From an uncultured Acidimicrobiales bacterium (GTDB lineage Bacteria; Actinomycetota; Acidimicrobiia; Acidimicrobiales; SHLQ01), in NCBI GenBank assembly GCA_938002955.1, contig CALLAA010000145.1, positions 713 to 64,712 of the forward strand: a DNA stretch of 64,000 nucleotides, given 5' to 3'. Shown piece by piece: positions 4,865 to 48,986 of this stretch. A program made the position numbers and the translations under genes. The notes beneath the pieces are model-generated. The model had not been told where the DNA came from. It was given only the letters and a program-made list of their open reading frames with translations, and did not search any database. How positions within the stretch are numbered: the first letter of the stretch is position 1; every line of letters starts with the position of its first letter.

Positions 4865-5338
4865 ATGGGCTTTCATGACATCTCGATGGAGTCGATCAGC
4901 GGCGAGCAGATCGACTTCACCCAATTCGAAGGACAGTACGCACTCTGCGTCAACGTCGCGAGTTTTTGAGGCGCTACGCCTCAGTACGCAGGTCTGCGTA
5001 CGCTCCACAACGACGTTGACGGCCTCACCGTTTTGGGCTTCCCGTGCAACCAGTTTGGTGCGCAGGAACCCGGTACGAACCAAGAGATCGCAGAGTTTGC
5101 CTCGTCGACCTATGACGTGAACTTTCCCATGTTCGCCAAGATCGACGTCAACGGCGACGATGCCGCGCCGCTGTATCAGATGCTGAAAGAACAGCAGCCG
5201 GGCGACGATGACAGTGCCGACATTAAGTGGAACTTCGAGAAGTTCCTCGTCAACCCGCAAGGCGAAACGATCACCCGCTGGGGCACCCGCACCACGCCGG
5301 AGGACATCGCAGCCGAGCTGGCTGACCTCATGGGCTAG
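4865..5338 (+). CDS. Glutathione peroxidase, selenocysteine-containing (in-frame TGA at 4967-4969, residue 35)
   Basis: ATG 4865 is preceded by GGAAGGAAGGA. The same frame as track ORF 5033..5338 reads ...[48 protein letters not shown]...IKWNFEKFLV. This is the canonical GPx motif NVASx[C/U]GxT with TGA at the catalytic position. A SECIS-like hairpin lies 14 nt downstream. Confidence 0.85.
4984..5001 (+). promoter_or_regulatory. Bacterial SECIS-like hairpin for the GPx UGA
   Basis: GUACGC-AGGUCU-GCGUAC: 6-8 bp perfect stem. The apex GCAGGUCUGC is identical to my recollection of the apex of the E. coli fdhF SECIS. It starts 14 nt after the UGA. Confidence 0.75.
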
Positions 5339-33876: not shown

Positions 33877-35505
33877 CTAGAGGACGTTGGACCGATCAGC
33901 GCGATCGACGATCAGAAGAACGACGGTCGTTATCACCATCAAGATGACGCTTAGTGCCATCGCCTGCCCGCGAATGCTCTGACCGGGTTGGCTGAGTAGC
34001 CGGCCAATCGCCAGCGGAACCGTCATGAAATCGGGCCGTCTGCCAACGAAACTTGTCGCACCGAACTCCCCGAGCGAGATGGCAAAGGCGAACCCAGCCC
34101 CCACGACGAGTGCCCGCCGTGCGATCGGGAAGTCGATATCGCGGCGAATCTGCGCCGGCGAACTTCCCATGCTCGCAGCGGCTTCACGAAGGTGCGGGTC
34201 GATCGATCGAAGGACTGGTACGACAGCTCGGGTGACGAAGGGGATGCCGATCAGAGCCTGAGCCAGCGGGATGATCACCCAGGATTGGCGTAGGTCGAGC
34301 CAGCCAGAATCGAAGGTGATGAGGATTCCGAAGCCCAAGGTCACCGCAGACGTGCCGAGCGGGAGCAAGTAGCCAAGGTCGAGGAGCCGCGAGATCTTCG
34401 TCGGGCTGTAAACGATCGCGATGGACGTCCACCCTCCGACCACCGTGGCGATCGCCGTCGCAAGGACCGCGAACCACAGCGAATTCGCGAGCGCTCGCTG
34501 TGGACTAACGGTGAGGAACGGCGGACGGTCGGCGAGCGATCGGTAGTTGTCGAAGCCCAGCCCCGAGCCGGTCTGCAGCGACTGCTCGACCAGGATGATG
34601 ATCGGGACGCTAAGCAGGCCGATCGTGGCTGCGATGGTCATCCAGGACAACCCGAGCGTGAGCGTATTGGGCGCAGGCTGGGCCCGCTCGGCGAGACGGT
34701 CGCTTTGAGCCAGCGATGAACGGAGCCGCAGATTGAGTGCGACGAGCGCGACGACCGCGATGAGCTGGACGATCGAGAGGGCGGCGGCGGTCGCAAAGTC
34801 CGTACGGCTAATCGCATATCGGAAGACCTCCGTTTCGATTGTCCGTTGGCGGGCGCCACCCAAGATGAGCACAACCCCGAACGAGGTGAAGGTGAAGAGA
34901 AACACGATCGACGTCGCCGCAAGCAACGACGGGCGAAGACGGCGAAGGGTGATTCGAAAGAACGTCTGCCAGGCCGGTGTGCCCAGCGTTCGTGCCGCGT
35001 GCTCGTCGTCTCGGGAGAGCTGGCCCCAGTAGCTCCCGACCGTTCGCACCACGACGGCCACGTTGAAGAAGACGTGAGCGACCAGGATGGCGAACACGGA
35101 CTTGGTGAGTGAAAAGGGGCCCGACGTCGCACCGAGTCTGTCGCCGGTCGCCAGGAATGCACCAGCCACGACAACCGTTGGAAGCACGAAGGGAACGGTT
35201 ACGAGCGCCTGGACTAAGCGCCGGCCGCGAAAGGTCACGTTTGCAATGACTGCGGTGAGCGGAAGCGCAACGATCAAGGTCAACACGGTTGACGCGACCG
35301 CCTGCCACAACGTGAACCATGCGACCGAACGAATCGACGATGACGAAAACGTGTTCAGCAGTGCACCGTCGCCATCGGAGAGGCCGCGCCACAGAAGCTG
35401 GGCGACGGGCCAGATGAAGAAGAGCGCGAGAAAGATCGTCGGGCCGGCCACCAGGCCGGCCCGACGGAGCGTCTGTGGCGTTAGCTGGCCACGATGGCGT
35501 TCCAT
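33877..35505 (-). CDS. thiP: Thiamine/iron-type ABC transporter permease, duplicated two-domain (ThiP-like)
   Basis: About 12 TM segments with two binding-protein-dependent permease domains. Downstream of the ThiB-like SBP under a TPP riboswitch. ATG 35505 is preferred to track start 35583. Confidence 0.7.
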   Translation of the reverse strand: MERHRGQLTPQTLRRAGLVAGPTIFLALFFIWPVAQLLWRGLSDGDGALLNTFSSSSIRSVAWFTLWQAVASTVLTLIVALPLTAVIANVTFRGRRLVQALVTVPFVLPTVVVAGAFLATGDRLGATSGPFSLTKSVFAILVAHVFFNVAVVVRTVGSYWGQLSRDDEHAARTLGTPAWQTFFRITLRRLRPSLLAATSIVFLFTFTSFGVVLILGGARQRTIETEVFRYAISRTDFATAAALSIVQLIAVVALVALNLRLRSSLAQSDRLAERAQPAPNTLTLGLSWMTIAATIGLLSVPIIILVEQSLQTGSGLGFDNYRSLADRPPFLTVSPQRALANSLWFAVLATAIATVVGGWTSIAIVYSPTKISRLLDLGYLLPLGTSAVTLGFGILITFDSGWLDLRQSWVIIPLAQALIGIPFVTRAVVPVLRSIDPHLREAAASMGSSPAQIRRDIDFPIARRALVVGAGFAFAISLGEFGATSFVGRRPDFMTVPLAIGRLLSQPGQSIRGQAMALSVILMVITTVVLLIVDRADRSNVL

Positions 35506-36599
35506 CGCTCGGTCCAGTCGTCCCGGTTCGTTTCGATGACGGCCGGGTCGATCGTGAGGGCATCGTCCACAAGCGGTCCCCATTGCACGAAGGCGTCAGG
35601 GAGGGCTGCTTCGCCATTGGCGGGGTAGACGAACATGTTCAAGGGAACGTCTTCTTGGAACGTCGTACTCAGCATGAAGTCGATCAGCGCAGCTGACGCT
35701 TCTGGGTGCGCAGTTCCGTTGAGAACGCCCGCGAATTCGATCTGGCGGAAACAGCTGTCCTGCAACACCCCGGTTGGAGGTGCGTCCACGGGCGGGTCGG
35801 CGAACAAGAACTCCGCTGGTGGGCTCGAAGCGTACGAGGTGACGATGGAACGAGCGCCGCCTCCGGCAATGAACTCGCCGTAGTACGCGTCGTTCCATCC
35901 GGCAGTGATCGAGACGTCGTTGTCGACGAGGGACGTCCAGTAGTCCTCCCACCCGTCTTCGCCGTACTTTGCGATCGTGGCGAGAAGAAACGAGAAGCCG
36001 GGGGATGATGTCTCGGGGTTCTCGGTCACGAACTGGCCAGCGTTGACTGGATCGATGAGGTCATCGAGAGACTCGGGTGCGTCTCCGGGTAGCGCGTCGG
36101 TCCAGTAGTTGACGCATACGTCGCCGTAGTCGATTGGCGTCAGGCGATTGAACGGGTCGAGCTCAAGTTCGTCAGCCACATCGTCGAGGCCTGGCGATGC
36201 GTACGGCACGAAGAGCTCGGCGTCGATTCCCCGGCACATGAAGCTGTTGTCGATGCCGAACAAAACATCGGCGGTGGGATTGTCCTTGGTCAACACGGCC
36301 TGGCTGACGAGCTGACCCGCATCACCAACCGCAACTTGTTCAACGATGATTCCGGTCTCGTCGGTAAATGCAGCGAGTGTCGATTCGCTAAGGGTGAACG
36401 AGTCATGGGTTGCCAACGTGATCGTGGTTCCGGCGAGGTTGTCGGTAGTCACGTCGGTGATGGCGTCGATCGATGGCTCATCGAAACAGGTCGACGCGGC
36501 CTCGCTCAATGTGTCGTCTCCGCACGCGCTAGCGAGCAACGCAAGTGCTGCGAGCGCAACGAGGGTCCGAGCCGATAGGCGAACAAATACGTGGTTCAT
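35481..36599 (-). CDS. thiB: Thiamine ABC transporter substrate-binding lipoprotein (ThiB/TbpA-like)
   Basis: Lipobox LLASACGD. Similarity to TbpA (ITLATHDSF..., ADVLFGIDNSF). Immediately preceded by a TPP riboswitch. Confidence 0.75.
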   Translation of the reverse strand: MNHVFVRLSARTLVALAALALLASACGDDTLSEAASTCFDEPSIDAITDVTTDNLAGTTITLATHDSFTLSESTLAAFTDETGIIVEQVAVGDAGQLVSQAVLTKDNPTADVLFGIDNSFMCRGIDAELFVPYASPGLDDVADELELDPFNRLTPIDYGDVCVNYWTDALPGDAPESLDDLIDPVNAGQFVTENPETSSPGFSFLLATIAKYGEDGWEDYWTSLVDNDVSITAGWNDAYYGEFIAGGGARSIVTSYASSPPAEFLFADPPVDAPPTGVLQDSCFRQIEFAGVLNGTAHPEASAALIDFMLSTTFQEDVPLNMFVYPANGEAALPDAFVQWGPLVDDALTIDPAVIETNRDDWTERWNAIVAS

Positions 36600-36605
36600 G
36601 TCATC

Positions 36606-36696
36606 TTCCTCCGCTGGAATTACCCAGTTCAGGTCTTGCGGGTCGGTGACGCTGTCGTCACCCTCTCAGCCCGGCATGTGCCCGAGCTCCCCGGTG
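36606..36696 (-). promoter_or_regulatory. TPP (THI-box) riboswitch
   Basis: The minus strand reads GGGGAGCUCGGGCACAUGCCGGGCUGAGAGGGUGACGACAGCGUCACCGACCCGCAAGACCUGAACUGGGUAAUUCCAGCGGAGGAAGAUGACAUG. It contains the conserved CUGAGA, ACCC, ACCUGA and CUGG-UAAU-CCAGCG elements. The 3' end covers the SD and start codon of thiB. Confidence 0.85.
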
Positions 36697-36855
36697 GTTG
36701 AATTGTTCTTCGAGTCTACGCCGATTGTGGCGCGCAGCGACGATGGGATGTCGAGGACGAAGTTTCGCTGGTCACCTTGCATGGCGACCCGCAACAGCCG
36801 ATAGTGCAGGTGTTGAGTTCACACTCGACCGTAGTGACGACGGCTAGGAGCGCCC

Positions 36856-42370: not shown

Positions 42371-42964
42371 CTAGAACTCGCTGATTCGGAACAGTGCCGA
42401 GGAGAGATCGTCGTAGAGGGTCGTCACAAAAAGCAGCCCAACCAGGCCGAGGACGATCGCGCCGCCGGTGACGATGGCTCGGTGCGACAGCTTCTCCTGC
42501 AGTTTCGGGAAGGCCACACCGGCGGCAGCAATGGAGATGAATGGCAGGAGCAAGCCGAGGAAGAACGACACGGTTCCTCCGAGGTGAGCAAGGGGTTCGC
42601 GACGAGCGCCGTTGAGGATGTCGGCCAATTCGGGGCCGACGCACGGAATCCACGCCCACACCGCAACAACGGCGGTGATGGCAGAGGCCGCTGCGTCAGA
42701 GATGCCACGGTCGAGCTTCCACGCGATTGCAGCCGCAGCCATGACGATCAGTCCGAGCGCGATCTGTACGAAGCCTCGCGGGGTCTCGAACCACCATCCG
42801 GCAAAGCGCACCCACGCTATGAGGGTCGCAACGGCGACGAAGACCGAGATAACGAGCGGTGTTCGGCGCCTGCCGAAGATCGTGATCGCAGCAGCGGGTA
42901 TGAGCAAGACCCAGCTGCACGGAAGGCGCAGGCTCTCGACGCCCTCGAGAAGCGTGTCGATCAC
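42371..42964 (-). CDS. CcdA/DsbD-like thiol-disulfide electron transporter
   Basis: 6 TM-like segments with the two membrane-embedded Cys motifs LPCSW and IPCVGP. 4-nt overlap with the upstream thioredoxin-like gene. Confidence 0.65.
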   Translation of the reverse strand: MIDTLLEGVESLRLPCSWVLLIPAAAITIFGRRRTPLVISVFVAVATLIAWVRFAGWWFETPRGFVQIALGLIVMAAAAIAWKLDRGISDAAASAITAVVAVWAWIPCVGPELADILNGARREPLAHLGGTVSFFLGLLLPFISIAAAGVAFPKLQEKLSHRAIVTGGAIVLGLVGLLFVTTLYDDLSSALFRISEF

Positions 42965-43653
42965 GAGGTCGCAGGGGGCGGATTATCGATGAGGTATTGC
43001 ACGGTCTGTGCGAGCTCTTCGTAACGACCTTCACCAATGTGGTCGTACCGTATGTCGCCGTTCTGGTCGATGACGTAGGTGCGTGGCCAGAAGCGTCGGC
43101 CGCCTTCTTGCCATGCGCGGAAGTTCTCTTTGTTGGTGTCGATTGCAACGGGCCAGGTCACACCGAGTCGTTCGATTGCATCTTCGATGTTTGGAATCTC
43201 GGCTTCGAAGGAGAACTCGGGGGCGTGGACGCCAATGATGTCGAAGTCGTCCCGGCTCGTCGCTGCGTAGAGCGCTTGGTTGTGGGGGATTCGGGCTTTG
43301 CAGTTGCTGCAGCCGAACGTCCACATTTCGACGAGGAGCACCTTGCCGTTGAAGTCATCGATCGAGGTGTTGTCGGTGTTTCGCCATCCGTCGAGGTTGA
43401 CGAGGTCCTTGCGGGGACCGTAGTTCTCGGGAGCGACCTCGAGCGCTTCGGTCGTGGTTGGGGCCGCTGTGGAGTCGGCGGTGGCGCTCTCACTCGTCGC
43501 TGCATCCGCAACGACGTCGACCGACGTGGTGTCATCTTCGCCGCCTCCAAAGCCGACGAGGGCGAGGACGACGAGACCTGCGAGCAGGACGATTCCAGCG
43601 ATGAGACGAATGGCCATACGTCGAGCGTAAACAGCGTGTGCTCCGCCGAGCAT
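42961..43653 (-). CDS. Membrane-anchored thioredoxin-fold protein (TlpA/ResA-like, Cys form)
   Basis: N-terminal TM anchor, acidic/Thr-rich linker, redox motif WTFGCSNC, cis-Pro region RTYVID. Confidence 0.75.
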   Translation of the reverse strand: MLGGAHAVYARRMAIRLIAGIVLLAGLVVLALVGFGGGEDDTTSVDVVADAATSESATADSTAAPTTTEALEVAPENYGPRKDLVNLDGWRNTDNTSIDDFNGKVLLVEMWTFGCSNCKARIPHNQALYAATSRDDFDIIGVHAPEFSFEAEIPNIEDAIERLGVTWPVAIDTNKENFRAWQEGGRRFWPRTYVIDQNGDIRYDHIGEGRYEELAQTVQYLIDNPPPATS

Positions 43654-44161: not shown

Positions 44162-44728
44162 GTGATCTTGAGCGACCGCAGTATTCGTGAACATCTTGAC
44201 GCCGGCACCATCGCCATCGACCCGATCGACGCGAGCGCCGTTCAGCCGTCGTCGGTCGACGTGCGCCTCGACCATCGTTTCCTCGTGTTCCGGAACCACA
44301 CGCGCGGCCTTATCGACGTCAAGCAAGATCTCTCCGACCTCACCGAACCGGTCGAGGCCTCCGATGATGACCCGTTCATCTTGCATCCCGGCGAGTTTGT
44401 CCTCGGGTCGACACTCGAGCGAATTGCGCTCCCCGATGATCTCGTCGCACGTCTCGAAGGCAAGTCGAGCCTCGGTCGTCTCGGGTTGCTCATCCACTCC
44501 ACAGCGGGCTTTATCGATGCTGGTTGGGATGGGCAGATCACCCTCGAACTGTCCAACGTCGCGAGCCTGCCGATCACGCTGTACCCCGGCATGCGCGTTG
44601 GTCAGGTGAGCTTCATGCAGATGACGACCGCAGCCGACAACCCCTATGGCTCAGGCATCATTGGGTCTAAGTACCAGGGACAGGTGGGACCTCGTCCGAG
44701 CCAGTACTGGAAGAACTTCACGAAATGA
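44162..44728 (+). CDS. dcd: dCTP deaminase
   Basis: ILSDRSIREHL..., PSSVDVRL, GKSSLGRLGL, GWDGQITLEL motifs. Confidence 0.9.
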   Translation: MILSDRSIREHLDAGTIAIDPIDASAVQPSSVDVRLDHRFLVFRNHTRGLIDVKQDLSDLTEPVEASDDDPFILHPGEFVLGSTLERIALPDDLVARLEGKSSLGRLGLLIHSTAGFIDAGWDGQITLELSNVASLPITLYPGMRVGQVSFMQMTTAADNPYGSGIIGSKYQGQVGPRPSQYWKNFTK

Positions 44729-45945: not shown

Positions 45946-46596
45946 TTATGTGCTCTCGAGCCAGTCGATGTCGTCGCGAAGTTGTGACTCGCTCCAGCCA
46001 CTGCGCAGCCGGGATTCGCCGCCGCCCTGAATCACGACGAAGGTGGGAACTGCATTCACGCTGTACTCGGCAAAGAGCTGGTCGATTTCGGCTGCGTGTG
46101 TGTCGTCGGTGATATGGACCATCGATTCGACGCCTTGAGCCGTAACGAACTCGTCGAGCTCGGCGGTGGTGCCATCGAGGCCGACGCCGACGAAGGTGAC
46201 ATCAGGGTGCTGTAGTTGAAGCTCTGCGACCGCAGGAGCTGCTGCTTTGCAATGTGGTCACCAGGGAGCCCAGAACCACAACACGAGGTCGGTGTCGCCG
46301 GACAGGTCGACCTGCTGGCCCACGACGCCGGCGTTGTCGTCGGCAGGGGCCTCGGCGGTGTCGACGAGCGCTGTGGTCGTTGTCGCCGCTTCCGTCGTGG
46401 TTGTGGTCTCGACCGCTGGTTCGGTTTCGGGTGGGGCGGTCGTCTCGGGTGCGGTCGTGGTCGTTTCCGGCAAGGTTGTATCCGGTGTCGACGCTGTCGT
46501 CTCCGGCGCCGCCACCTCGGCGGCGTCGCTCGAACTCGCACAGGCCGAAGCCAGAAGGCCAAGGGCCGTGAGCAAACACACAAGTCGACGCCGCAT
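45946..46596 (-). CDS. Thioredoxin-fold lipoprotein, selenocysteine-containing (in-frame TGA at 46258-46260, residue 113; redox motif W-A-P-W-U-P-H-C)
   Basis: Track ORF 46258..46596 ends ...LVLWFWAPW-TGA. The same frame continues PHCKAAAPAVAELQLQHPDVTFVGVGLDG...NAVPTFVVIQGGGESRL...WLEST-TAA (stop 45946-45948), completing a TlpA/ResA-type domain. Lipobox LLASAC and a Thr/Glu/Pro-rich linker. A SECIS-like hairpin follows the TGA. Confidence 0.85.
46220..46240 (-). promoter_or_regulatory. Bacterial SECIS-like hairpin for the thioredoxin-like UGA
   Basis: AGCU(C)CUGC-GGUC-GCAGAGCU: 8 bp with one bulged C and a GGUC apical loop. Starts 17 nt after the UGA. Confidence 0.7.
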
Positions 46597-46658: not shown

Positions 46659-48986
46659 CTAGGCCTCTTCGGTCTCGGTCGGGGTCACGGTGGCGTCTGG
46701 CCCAGGAGCGGTTGCACCGCCTGAACCAAGCGACACGGGAGTGTCGACGTAGGCAAACGTTGGTGAGAGCGCTGCTTGCTTTGCGATCTCATCGCCGCGT
46801 TCGAGCGCCTCGATCATGTGGATCGCAATATCGGCGACCTGTACGGCGTCCTCGTCGAGACCTTGCCCCTTCACGCCGTCATCGATCATGACGTAGCAGA
46901 ACGGGCACGCGGTCGCGATGCGCTCGGCGCCCGTAGCGACGAGCTGCTCGGAGCGTTCGACGTTGACGTCCTTGCCAGTGGTCTCTTCCATCCAGAAACG
47001 TCCGCCGCCTGCGCCACAGCACATGCTCTTGGTGCCATTGCGCTCGGCTTCGAGAATCTGGACTCCGCCGAGGGAGCCAAGGACCTTACGAGGCGCCATG
47101 TAGATGTCGTTATGGCGGCCGAGGTAGCAAGCGTCGTGGTACACGATGCGCTCTTCGAGCGACGCGTTGCTCATGTCGAGGTCGCCATCTTCGATGAGCT
47201 GCTCGAGAAACTCGCTGTGGTGGATGACCTCGTAGTGGCCACCGAGCTGTGGGTACTCGTTGGCGAGGGTGTTGAAGCAGTGCGGGCACTGGGTGATGAT
47301 CTTCTTGACCCCCATGCCGTCGAGTGTCTCGATGTTCTGCATGGCGAGCATCTGGAAGATGTACTCGTTGCCGGTTCGCCGAGCGGAGTCGCCGGTGCAG
47401 TTCTCGGCTGGACCGAGGATGGCGTACGACACGCCGGCACGGTTCATCAGCTTCGACAGGGCCTGGCTGACCTTCTTGTTCTTGTCGTCGAAGGAGCCAG
47501 CGCAGCCGACCCAGTAGAGGTATTCGGCTTCGAGCGGTTCGTCGCCGGCGAGCACGGTGACGGAGTCGTCGACGACCCAGTCGGCGCGGTCACCCTGGCT
47601 CAGCGCCCATGGGTTCATCTGGTTTTCCATGCCGCGGTAGGCGTTGCCCAGCTCGGTCGGGAAGTCCGATTCCATAAGCGACAAGTAGCGACGCATGTCG
47701 AGGATCTTGTCGAGGATCTCGATGTTGACCGGGCAGATCTCGTCACAGGCGCGACATGACGTGCACGCCCACAGCTCTTCGGACGTCACGCGGTCGAACA
47801 TCCAGTTCGATGGCACGGTGATCTCGGCGTCGACGCTGATCGGAGGGGAGACCTGGGGGTCTCCGGTACGGGCCATAACCTCGCCAACCTTGAGCACGAT
47901 CTCTCGAGGGTCCAGCGGCTTGCCGGTTGCGTTTGCGGGGCAGACGCTGGTGCAGCGGCCGCACATGGTGCACGAGTCCGTGTCGAGCAGTTGCTTCCAC
48001 GTGAACTCTTCGACGGTCGAAACACCGAAGCTCTCGAGCTCGGTCTCCATGAGGTTCGGCATTGCCTTCATGGCGCCCTTCGGACGGTCCTTGTCCTTCA
48101 GGTACATGTTGAGCGGCGAGGTGAAGATATGGCGAAGCATGGTGATCGGCAGGAGGATCAGGAAGCCCACGAAGGAGAGCACGTGGGCAATCCACCATGC
48201 CTGGTGCCAACCAGCAATCGAGCCGGTGCCTTCGACGAGTTGCGCGATCGGGTAACCAATGAAGCTCCACTTTTCGTACTCGGGAAGGCCGCCGAGAGCC
48301 TGGCCCTCGAGCGCGATACGCCAACCTTCGGCCAGGAAGCCAGTGACGGCGATCGTCAGGAACGTGGCGAGGATGATCGCGTGCTCAGGCTTGCTCTTTA
48401 CCCGGATGCGGTAGGGACGCATAGCGCGAGGTCCGTATCGGCGGCCGATTGCCCACAGAATCGAGATGGTGAAGATCAGGCCAGCGAAGTCACCGACGAA
48501 GGCGTATCCCTTGTAGGTGCCGCCGTGGAGGAACTTGAGTGCCGTCGGCAACTGGTGATCGATCTCGAGCGTCGTGGTGACGCCGAGGAGCACGACGAAG
48601 CTGAAGTACATCATCGAGTGCATGATTCCGGCCGCTGGTTCACGCAGCAGGGTCTTCATGTAGAGACCCGAACGGAGGTCTGCGAGACGGGTCTTTGCGT
48701 TCTTGGACGTGGTGGCTCGGTTGTCGGGTCCGCCTCGTTCCCAGTTCTTGATGCGAAGCGAGAATACCCACGCGCCGTACACGATCATCACGGGCAGCAG
48801 CGTGTAGAACGCAACCTTTATCGCACCCGGGATATTGGCGAACACGGTGCGGTGAACCGGGTTGTCAGCAGGGTCGAAGTGGAAGACCTGAGCAGCGATG
48901 CCGGACAGCACGGTGAAGAGGGCTACACCGATACCGATTCCGAGGACGAGGCGCTGCGGGGAGACGCGGGTTTTCATGGGCGCCAA
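46659..48986 (-). CDS. Membrane-bound (Fe-S) reductase: NarI/DsrM-like TM domain fused to an HdrD/DsrK-like 2x[4Fe-4S] + 2xCCG domain
   Basis: 775 aa with about 6 N-terminal TM segments. CTMCGRCTSVCP and CTSCRACDEICP ferredoxin motifs. Two Cys-rich CCG repeats (WVGCAGSFD...QCPHC; HDACYLGR...MCCGAGGG). Confidence 0.8.
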   Translation of the reverse strand: MAPMKTRVSPQRLVLGIGIGVALFTVLSGIAAQVFHFDPADNPVHRTVFANIPGAIKVAFYTLLPVMIVYGAWVFSLRIKNWERGGPDNRATTSKNAKTRLADLRSGLYMKTLLREPAAGIMHSMMYFSFVVLLGVTTTLEIDHQLPTALKFLHGGTYKGYAFVGDFAGLIFTISILWAIGRRYGPRAMRPYRIRVKSKPEHAIILATFLTIAVTGFLAEGWRIALEGQALGGLPEYEKWSFIGYPIAQLVEGTGSIAGWHQAWWIAHVLSFVGFLILLPITMLRHIFTSPLNMYLKDKDRPKGAMKAMPNLMETELESFGVSTVEEFTWKQLLDTDSCTMCGRCTSVCPANATGKPLDPREIVLKVGEVMARTGDPQVSPPISVDAEITVPSNWMFDRVTSEELWACTSCRACDEICPVNIEILDKILDMRRYLSLMESDFPTELGNAYRGMENQMNPWALSQGDRADWVVDDSVTVLAGDEPLEAEYLYWVGCAGSFDDKNKKVSQALSKLMNRAGVSYAILGPAENCTGDSARRTGNEYIFQMLAMQNIETLDGMGVKKIITQCPHCFNTLANEYPQLGGHYEVIHHSEFLEQLIEDGDLDMSNASLEERIVYHDACYLGRHNDIYMAPRKVLGSLGGVQILEAERNGTKSMCCGAGGGRFWMEETTGKDVNVERSEQLVATGAERIATACPFCYVMIDDGVKGQGLDEDAVQVADIAIHMIEALERGDEIAKQAALSPTFAYVDTPVSLGSGGATAPGPDATVTPTETEEA

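Follow-up and report, generated by a model that had tools for sequence, protein, structure and literature searches.

The question raised by this locus is whether a TGA codon lying within a thioredoxin-like coding region ends a small protein or is read as selenocysteine (Sec). The locus lies in a window of 64,000 nucleotides, the whole stretch of DNA analysed here, whose host is an Acidimicrobiales-type marine actinobacterium. On comparative sequence evidence, we put at about 0.92 the probability that positions 46596-45946 of the minus strand encode a real selenoprotein of 216 residues, belonging to the actinobacterial DsbE/DsbF-like (TlpA-like) thioredoxin-fold family and annotated as a 112-aa fragment. 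The first-pass annotation of this DNA had proposed a lipoprotein of thioredoxin fold that is exported, carries a U-x-x-C centre and relies on a SECIS element for decoding of the UGA. This proposal is supported by the dN/dS downstream of the TGA, by the distribution of the hairpin and by the Sec/Cys dichotomy among relatives.

On the minus strand, the first open reading frame runs from an ATG at 46596 to the TGA at 46260-46258 and yields 112 aa with the C-terminus ...DLVLWFWAPW. Beyond the TGA the same frame reads PHCKAAAPAVAEL... / PHCKAAAPAVAELQ... for 103 further codons, up to a TAA at 45948-45946; the earlier description of an ORF stopping at 46258 after ...LVLWFWAPW, with the frame open to a TAA at 45946, was correct in all coordinates and sequences. 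With the TGA taken as a sense codon, the complete gene (45946..46596) has 216 codons plus TAA and Sec at codon 113, as judged from the sequence, its translation and Pfam models that run across the UGA. Its product comprises a lipobox signal peptide, a 71-residue linker and one thioredoxin-fold domain, and the motif around the TGA becomes W-A-P-W-U-P-H-C.

The N-terminus, MRRRLVCLLTALGLLASAC (46540..46596, minus strand), fits the lipoprotein pattern with the lipobox L-A-S-A-C, and Cys19 is the predicted lipidated residue; the export signal and membrane tether of the 216-residue protein are assigned by this pattern match only. Found by pattern search in 28 of 32 Sec-type and 35 of 41 Cys-type members, the lipobox signal peptide is a predicted trait of the whole family. 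The long Thr/Glu/Pro linker noted earlier follows it directly (residues 20-90; 46327..46539, minus strand): 71 residues of low complexity, rich in Thr, Pro, Glu and Ala, with a weak match to the Pfam Mucin-like model. This linker diverges strongly among relatives and is wholly different in the loci L001 and L002. The thioredoxin-fold domain (residues 91-216; 45949..46326, minus strand), TlpA-like and of DsbE-DsbF type, is recognised by Pfam, by NCBIfam below cutoff and by a PDB match. Within it lie the redox motif U-P-H-C (46249..46260, minus strand), with the UGA (Sec113) at 46260-46258 and Cys116 at 46251-46249, and the cis-Pro P184 (46045-46047, minus strand), which aligns to the Pro of M. 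tuberculosis DsbF (3IOS). That the fold continues through the TGA, as the first reading had it, is borne out by four Pfam models (Thioredoxin, Thioredoxin_8, Redoxin and AhpC-TSA), each of which aligns across it. By Pfam and PDB matches, neither the half before nor the half after the TGA is a complete fold on its own.

The DNA of relatives was gathered from the loci behind public protein fragments, from one genome scan and from one metagenome scan, giving a comparison set of 89 loci with the LWFWAPW motif. The codon following this motif is TGA in 41 loci (33 distinct sequences) and TGC or TGT in 48 (46 distinct sequences), a clean Sec/Cys dichotomy of the kind that the first-pass annotation had thought worth seeking among orthologues. 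Alignment with the Cys homologues places the UGA exactly at the catalytic Cys position, where the proteins P0004, P0005, P0007 and P0008 also have Cys. The TGA loci cover 30-97% protein identity, and in every one of them the frame is open through the complete thioredoxin fold. They range from a close relative in an Acidimicrobiales MAG (L005, 96% identity) to orthologues at only 30-43% identity in Acidimicrobiales and Actinomycetes MAGs (L006-L008) and on many marine metagenome contigs. Comparison of the window gene with its nearer relatives gave a dN/dS of 0.07-0.13 for the 88 codons past the hairpin, equal to that upstream of the TGA; the contrary picture, orthologues ending at the TGA with a downstream dN/dS of about 1, was not what we found. 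In the 15 codons after the UGA, dS falls to 0 (window against L001 or L004), compared with 0.8-1.3 elsewhere in the gene.

Public protein collections hold fragments only, among them the 112-aa N-terminal piece of the window gene and that of a 94%-identical relative, while C-terminal pieces of 79-84 aa are called as separate ORFs in relatives. A genuine stop, with a pseudogene or two small genes and the downstream thioredoxin-like frame a decaying remnant, would agree with these calls and with the fact that no Sec machinery is seen in the window, but it is effectively refuted by the conservation data, namely the TGA kept across all 41 loci, the low downstream dN/dS, the incompleteness of either half as a fold and the starts of the downstream ORF calls at arbitrary internal Met or Val codons.

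A neighbour-joining tree sets the Sec forms almost entirely apart from the Cys forms and puts the subclade of the window gene on a long branch. One Cys form (L082; CEVC, Cys codon at about 2469) is nested among the Sec forms and has lost the hairpin; it may represent a Sec-to-Cys reversion, judging from its place in the tree. The locus L004 (1-471) comes from a metagenome contig of 615 bp. It matches the window exactly over the 25 codons preceding the UGA, but past the SECIS its dS is about 1.3, which points either to recombination with the breakpoint at the invariant SECIS or to chimeric assembly of the contig. When the selenoprotein gene is compared with L001 (45946-46596 against L001 1464-2171), the domain is about 84% identical and the linker cannot be aligned, compared with about 96% identity for the flanking genes of the same two contigs. 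The selenoprotein evolves much faster than its neighbour genes, a point that speaks against the Sec reading.

For the TGA to be read as Sec, a SECIS element is the next matter. The predicted bacterial SECIS hairpin, AGCU(C)CUGC-GGUC-GCAGAGCU (46220..46240, minus strand), lies 17 nt after the UGA, and its apical loop GGUC (46231-46228) starts 26 nt after the UGA; the bulged, SECIS-like hairpin of the first-pass annotation is present as described. Its design resembles the SECIS of E. coli fdhF, which has a short upper stem, a GGUC loop and a bulged 5'-side pyrimidine, and lies shortly after the UGA within the coding sequence. The window hairpin has the same GGUC loop and 5' bulged pyrimidine in coding sequence, but its loop starts 26 nt after the UGA rather than the about 18 nt of fdhF, its lower stem differs, and SelB binding is here a prediction.

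We applied published bSECIS criteria (PMC13188914), in our own implementation, to all TGAs of the window, which has a GC content of 62%. The hairpin, with a stem of 4 + 4 bp, satisfies all of them (a 4-nt loop, a stem of at least 4 bp, a G within the first two loop positions, 26-nt spacing, -10 kcal/mol). However, the same generic criteria are satisfied by 29% of all TGA trinucleotides in the window, and the fold, at -10 kcal/mol, has a z of -1.1 against shuffled sequences, which is not significant; for these two reasons the hairpin alone was not used as evidence. A GGUC-loop hairpin at SECIS spacing is found at only 5 of the 1669 TGAs in the window, and two of the five are the two selenoprotein candidates discussed here. 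No SECIS family was found at the site in Rfam, either at the gathering threshold or at E up to 10, a null result that is uninformative and was to be expected, given how thinly Rfam covers bacterial SECIS elements (2026 preprint).

While the hairpin alone is not beyond chance, the comparative evidence is far beyond it. Numbering columns from the U of UGA, we took columns 26-29 with 34-37 as the core pairs. All 33 distinct Sec forms have the four core pairs formed, the GGUC loop, and a loop start exactly 26 nt after the UGA, and the full four-pair stem occurs in none of the 46 distinct Cys forms; absence of the hairpin from relatives, which would have counted against the first reading, is confined to the Cys-type sequences. 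The four stem-loop codons have a third-position entropy of 0-0.2 bit in Sec forms, compared with 1.5-1.7 bit in Cys forms. Compensatory double changes were observed at two core pairs (C-G to G-C twice, U-A to C-G once), together with G-C to G-U wobbles. The lower stem exists in two registers, with a bulged C in the window subclade and, in most others, a 1x1 mismatch followed by C-G, C-G and G-U. The residues A-V-A encoded by the loop region are invariant in Sec forms and variable in Cys forms, and it is therefore the RNA that constrains the protein, not the reverse.

These data also bear on whether the hairpin could be a by-product of a conserved A-P-A-V-A-E motif, devoid of RNA function. Consistent with such an origin, (A)PAVA(E) is also present in some Cys homologues (P0004, P0005 and P0007), and the single-sequence fold, as stated, is not significant. 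Nevertheless, Cys forms vary both codons and residues at this place and none has the 4-bp stem, whereas the third codon positions of Sec forms are fixed as U, G, C and A, double substitutions preserve pairing, and a Sargasso Sea member has another stem, GCGGC/GCCGC, around the same loop. A hairpin arising from the protein motif is, in our judgement, scarcely credible.

A further possibility is that the UGA is translated, through leaky termination or a variant code, as one of the standard amino acids Trp, Cys and Gly and not as Sec. UGA followed by C is a weak termination context, as is found here, and the Sec machinery of this genome is a prediction. The window holds no tRNA gene, selC included, and selA, selB and selD are not among its annotated genes. 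According to a 2026 preprint, a different order of the class Acidimicrobiia has the complete Sec machinery. Against a standard amino acid, TGA serves as the ordinary stop of many further genes in the window; dcd (44162-44728), one of these, aligns with its orthologues over its full length. Moreover, all UGA forms, but none of the Cys forms, have a hairpin with the G-rich loop of SelB type at fixed spacing, the UGA coincides with the catalytic Cys position, and the window holds a second gene arranged in this way. We consider translation as a standard amino acid very improbable. Since the TGA and the frame are conserved, dN/dS is low and TGA is an ordinary stop elsewhere, a pseudogene, a sequencing error and a variant code are excluded for practical purposes.

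The second gene, a glutathione peroxidase (GPx; 4865..5338, plus strand) and probably the 'hidden selenoprotein 1' of the first-pass annotation, was the only further in-frame TGA candidate to turn up when the window was scanned for a TGA with a GGUC-loop hairpin. Its TGA (4967-4969) is at the catalytic position, in the motif NVASF-U-GAT (CVNVASF-U-GATPQY), and Pfam GSHPx matches end to end across it (E 5.6e-38). A hairpin of 7 bp, GUACGCA-GGUC-UGCGUAC (4984-5001, plus strand), has its loop 21 nt after the UGA. The GPx gene offers independent support for decoding of UGA as Sec in this organism. Two genes with a catalytic-site UGA and the same apical loop argue, at the level of sequence, for what is probably one SelB specificity in this genome.

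Although the selenoprotein reading stands, the notion of a hidden, new selenoprotein class does not, as the LWFWAPW-U-xx-C family was described in 2005 from the Sargasso Sea metagenome as 'thiol-disulfide isomerase-like' (Zhang, Fomenko & Gladyshev 2005) and is listed with cd02966 and UxxC in a 2026 review (PMC13188914, Table 1). The supplement of the 2005 study gives the member AACY01523057 as ...REVLLWFWAPWuGGCNREAAAVAAL.... Its DNA after the TGA, ...GCA GCG GCG GTC GCC GCT..., has the GGUC loop in the same codon register, and its stem, GCGGC/GCCGC, is fully compensated and unlike that of the window in sequence. Because this published member has the same motif, loop and register, the family must count as already known, together with its SECIS and its Sec/Cys pairing. 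Exported thioredoxin-fold selenoproteins, DsbA-like and DsbG-like, have likewise been predicted before (PMC13188914), and NCBIfam has no dedicated model for this thiol-disulfide isomerase-like selenoprotein family.

The window protein is 40% identical to AACY01523057 (BLASTP E 1e-10), the same level as to other Sec forms. It shares with the 2005 family the sequence LLWFWAPW-U-xx-C followed by ..REA.AVA, the thioredoxin/TlpA-like fold and the SECIS design. It differs in lying in a long-branch subclade (the window and L001-L005), with the dipeptide of U-P-H-C, a bulged-C lower stem and, in the subclade, a thioredoxin-like 'VPTF' cis-Pro region in place of 'QP(A/S)F'. The window gene therefore adds a new, divergent member to a family known since 2005, and no new class of system. 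What we add is descriptive: the monophyly-like clustering of Sec forms, the invariant SECIS core, the lost CcdA linkage and the second Sec gene.

To understand what such a protein might do, its characterised relatives are informative. The best matches among solved structures (phmmer) are M. tuberculosis DsbF (Rv1677, PDB 3IOS; E 4e-16) and DsbE/MPT53 (Rv2878c, PDB 1LU4; E 1.2e-13), in alignments of about 100 residues that cross the U position and align the cis-proline, a similarity in sequence and fold that places the window protein alongside Mt-DsbF and Mt-DsbE. Like the window protein, these actinobacterial enzymes are extracytoplasmic, have a single thioredoxin fold and carry the motif VLWFWAPWCPxC (with U here for Cys); unlike it, they have Cys and not Sec, and CcdA- or DsbD-type membrane proteins are their proposed partners. 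Both are oxidants in vitro, folding hirudin oxidatively and not reducing insulin. The first-pass annotation had spoken of a TlpA/ResA-type fold. The TlpA-like thioredoxin fold is confirmed, but the closest characterised relatives are the actinobacterial DsbE/DsbF and not the cytochrome-c-maturation reductants ResA and TlpA.

The latter comparison nevertheless deserves attention, as the protein could be a ResA/TlpA-type reductant of cytochrome c maturation, receiving electrons from CcdA. ResA, TlpA and CcmG(DsbE) are, like the window protein, membrane-anchored extracytoplasmic thioredoxin folds with a WxxW-CxxC-type motif. The NCBIfam models show weak profile similarity, all below curated cutoffs (ResA 29.8 bits against 170, TlpA 29.5 against 230, DsbE 21.8 against 123), that is, about 30 bits compared with the 123-230 required. 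A finding that would suit such a role is the DsbD_TM/CcdA gene that directly follows the family member in at least 16 of 32 Cys-type loci. In contrast, this gene is adjacent in 0 of 23 Sec-type loci, and the window locus has no ccs, ccm or ccdA context and no resB or resC neighbour. For a nearby gene labelled 'ccdA', no similarity to CcdA is detectable, and Mt-DsbE/F, the nearest relatives to have been characterised, act as oxidants and leave insulin unreduced. On balance, a role as a CcdA-fed reductant is unlikely, albeit deserving of some weight. Examples of the CcdA-linked Cys type are L058 1079-2380 and L035 3360-4238, and the Sec-type loci so compared are drawn from L014-L087.

The gene just mentioned (42371-42964) was labelled 'ccdA' in the first-pass annotation, a label that finds no backing: it has no Pfam match (E up to 10), no NCBIfam match and no BLASTP similarity to real CcdA. 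Its product is a multi-pass membrane protein of 197 residues with two Pro-Cys motifs (LPCSW and IPCVGP), and the gene overlaps by 4 bp, on the minus strand, a Redoxin gene (42961-43653, WTFGCSNC). A CcdA-like role for this protein is possible but unsupported; perhaps it is a membrane partner for thiol transfer of a kind not yet described. The pair (42371-43653) is conserved in L001, L002 and L005. The Redoxin gene, from another subfamily, is no Cys counterpart of the selenoprotein. The proposal that 'ccdA' and this Cys paralogue form a natural Sec/Cys comparison is consequently weak, with a membrane protein not detectably CcdA and a Redoxin of another subfamily, and the natural Cys comparators are the DsbE/F-like genes of other genomes.

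The immediate neighbours of the window gene are a gene for an Fe-S CCG protein, an MFS transporter gene and dcd. A neighbour shared across the Sec clade was sought and none was found. The Fe-S CCG protein (46659-48986, minus strand) is a 775-aa membrane protein with two 4Fe-4S motifs and two CCG domains (HdrD/DsrK/TfrB-like). Its gene shares the strand of the selenoprotein gene and stops 62 bp before the start of the latter; this synteny is kept in L001 and L002 only and is absent upstream in L003 and L005. In one Sec subclade (L055 2095-2676 and six related Sec-type loci), a fused HMA + cupin gene lies just upstream on the same strand, which hints at a metal link for that one subclade only.

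Building on established bacterial Sec decoding and lipoprotein export, we infer the following course for the selenoprotein. At UGA113, the hairpin 17-37 nt downstream would recruit SelB with Sec-tRNA(Sec), so that Sec is inserted and translation does not terminate. The lipobox signal peptide would then send the unfolded chain through the Sec translocon, after which Cys19 would be lipidated, and the long Thr/Pro-rich linker would keep the domain away from the membrane. Outside the cell, U113-P-H-C116 would cycle between selenol/thiol and selenenylsulfide, exchanging disulfides with secreted or membrane proteins.

In E. coli DsbA, the active site also has P-H as its dipeptide. This match, the oxidant activity of the relatives and the absence of CcdA linkage make us lean by analogy towards oxidative folding, thiol oxidation or disulfide exchange, and away from cytochrome c maturation. 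The Sec forms constitute a largely separate DsbE/DsbF branch, found mainly in marine metagenomes and, where a genome is named, in Acidimicrobiales and Actinomycetes MAGs, which has lost the CcdA coupling of the Cys forms. In a more far-reaching version, their U-x-x-C lipoprotein (U-P-H-C, with the DsbA-type dipeptide, in the window) would serve as a partner-independent extracytoplasmic oxidant, whose selenenylsulfide is regenerated directly by O2 or peroxide and not by a membrane electron carrier. We hold this version at long odds. Diselenide catalysts speed oxidative protein folding in vitro, and a partner-independent oxidant, if real, would be their natural counterpart.

Independently of function, the locus has practical relevance for annotation, as this gene is broken at the UGA in public gene calls and the GPx gene would be split likewise. 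Because gene calls split Sec genes in this manner, counts of redox capacity and of selenium dependence in marine Acidimicrobiales come out too low. With 33 Sec and 46 Cys sequences and one homologous SECIS, the family also provides a natural experiment, and its invariant Ala-Val-Ala in the helix after the active site shows a coding-region RNA element freezing codons and residues.

Elsewhere in the window, a TPP riboswitch (36589-36703, minus strand), above the Rfam gathering threshold, lies upstream of an ORF at 35481-36665. A full-length MTTB-family (trimethylamine methyltransferase-like) gene is found at 748-2265 on the plus strand (Pfam E 2.7e-203), in which no in-frame stop was seen.
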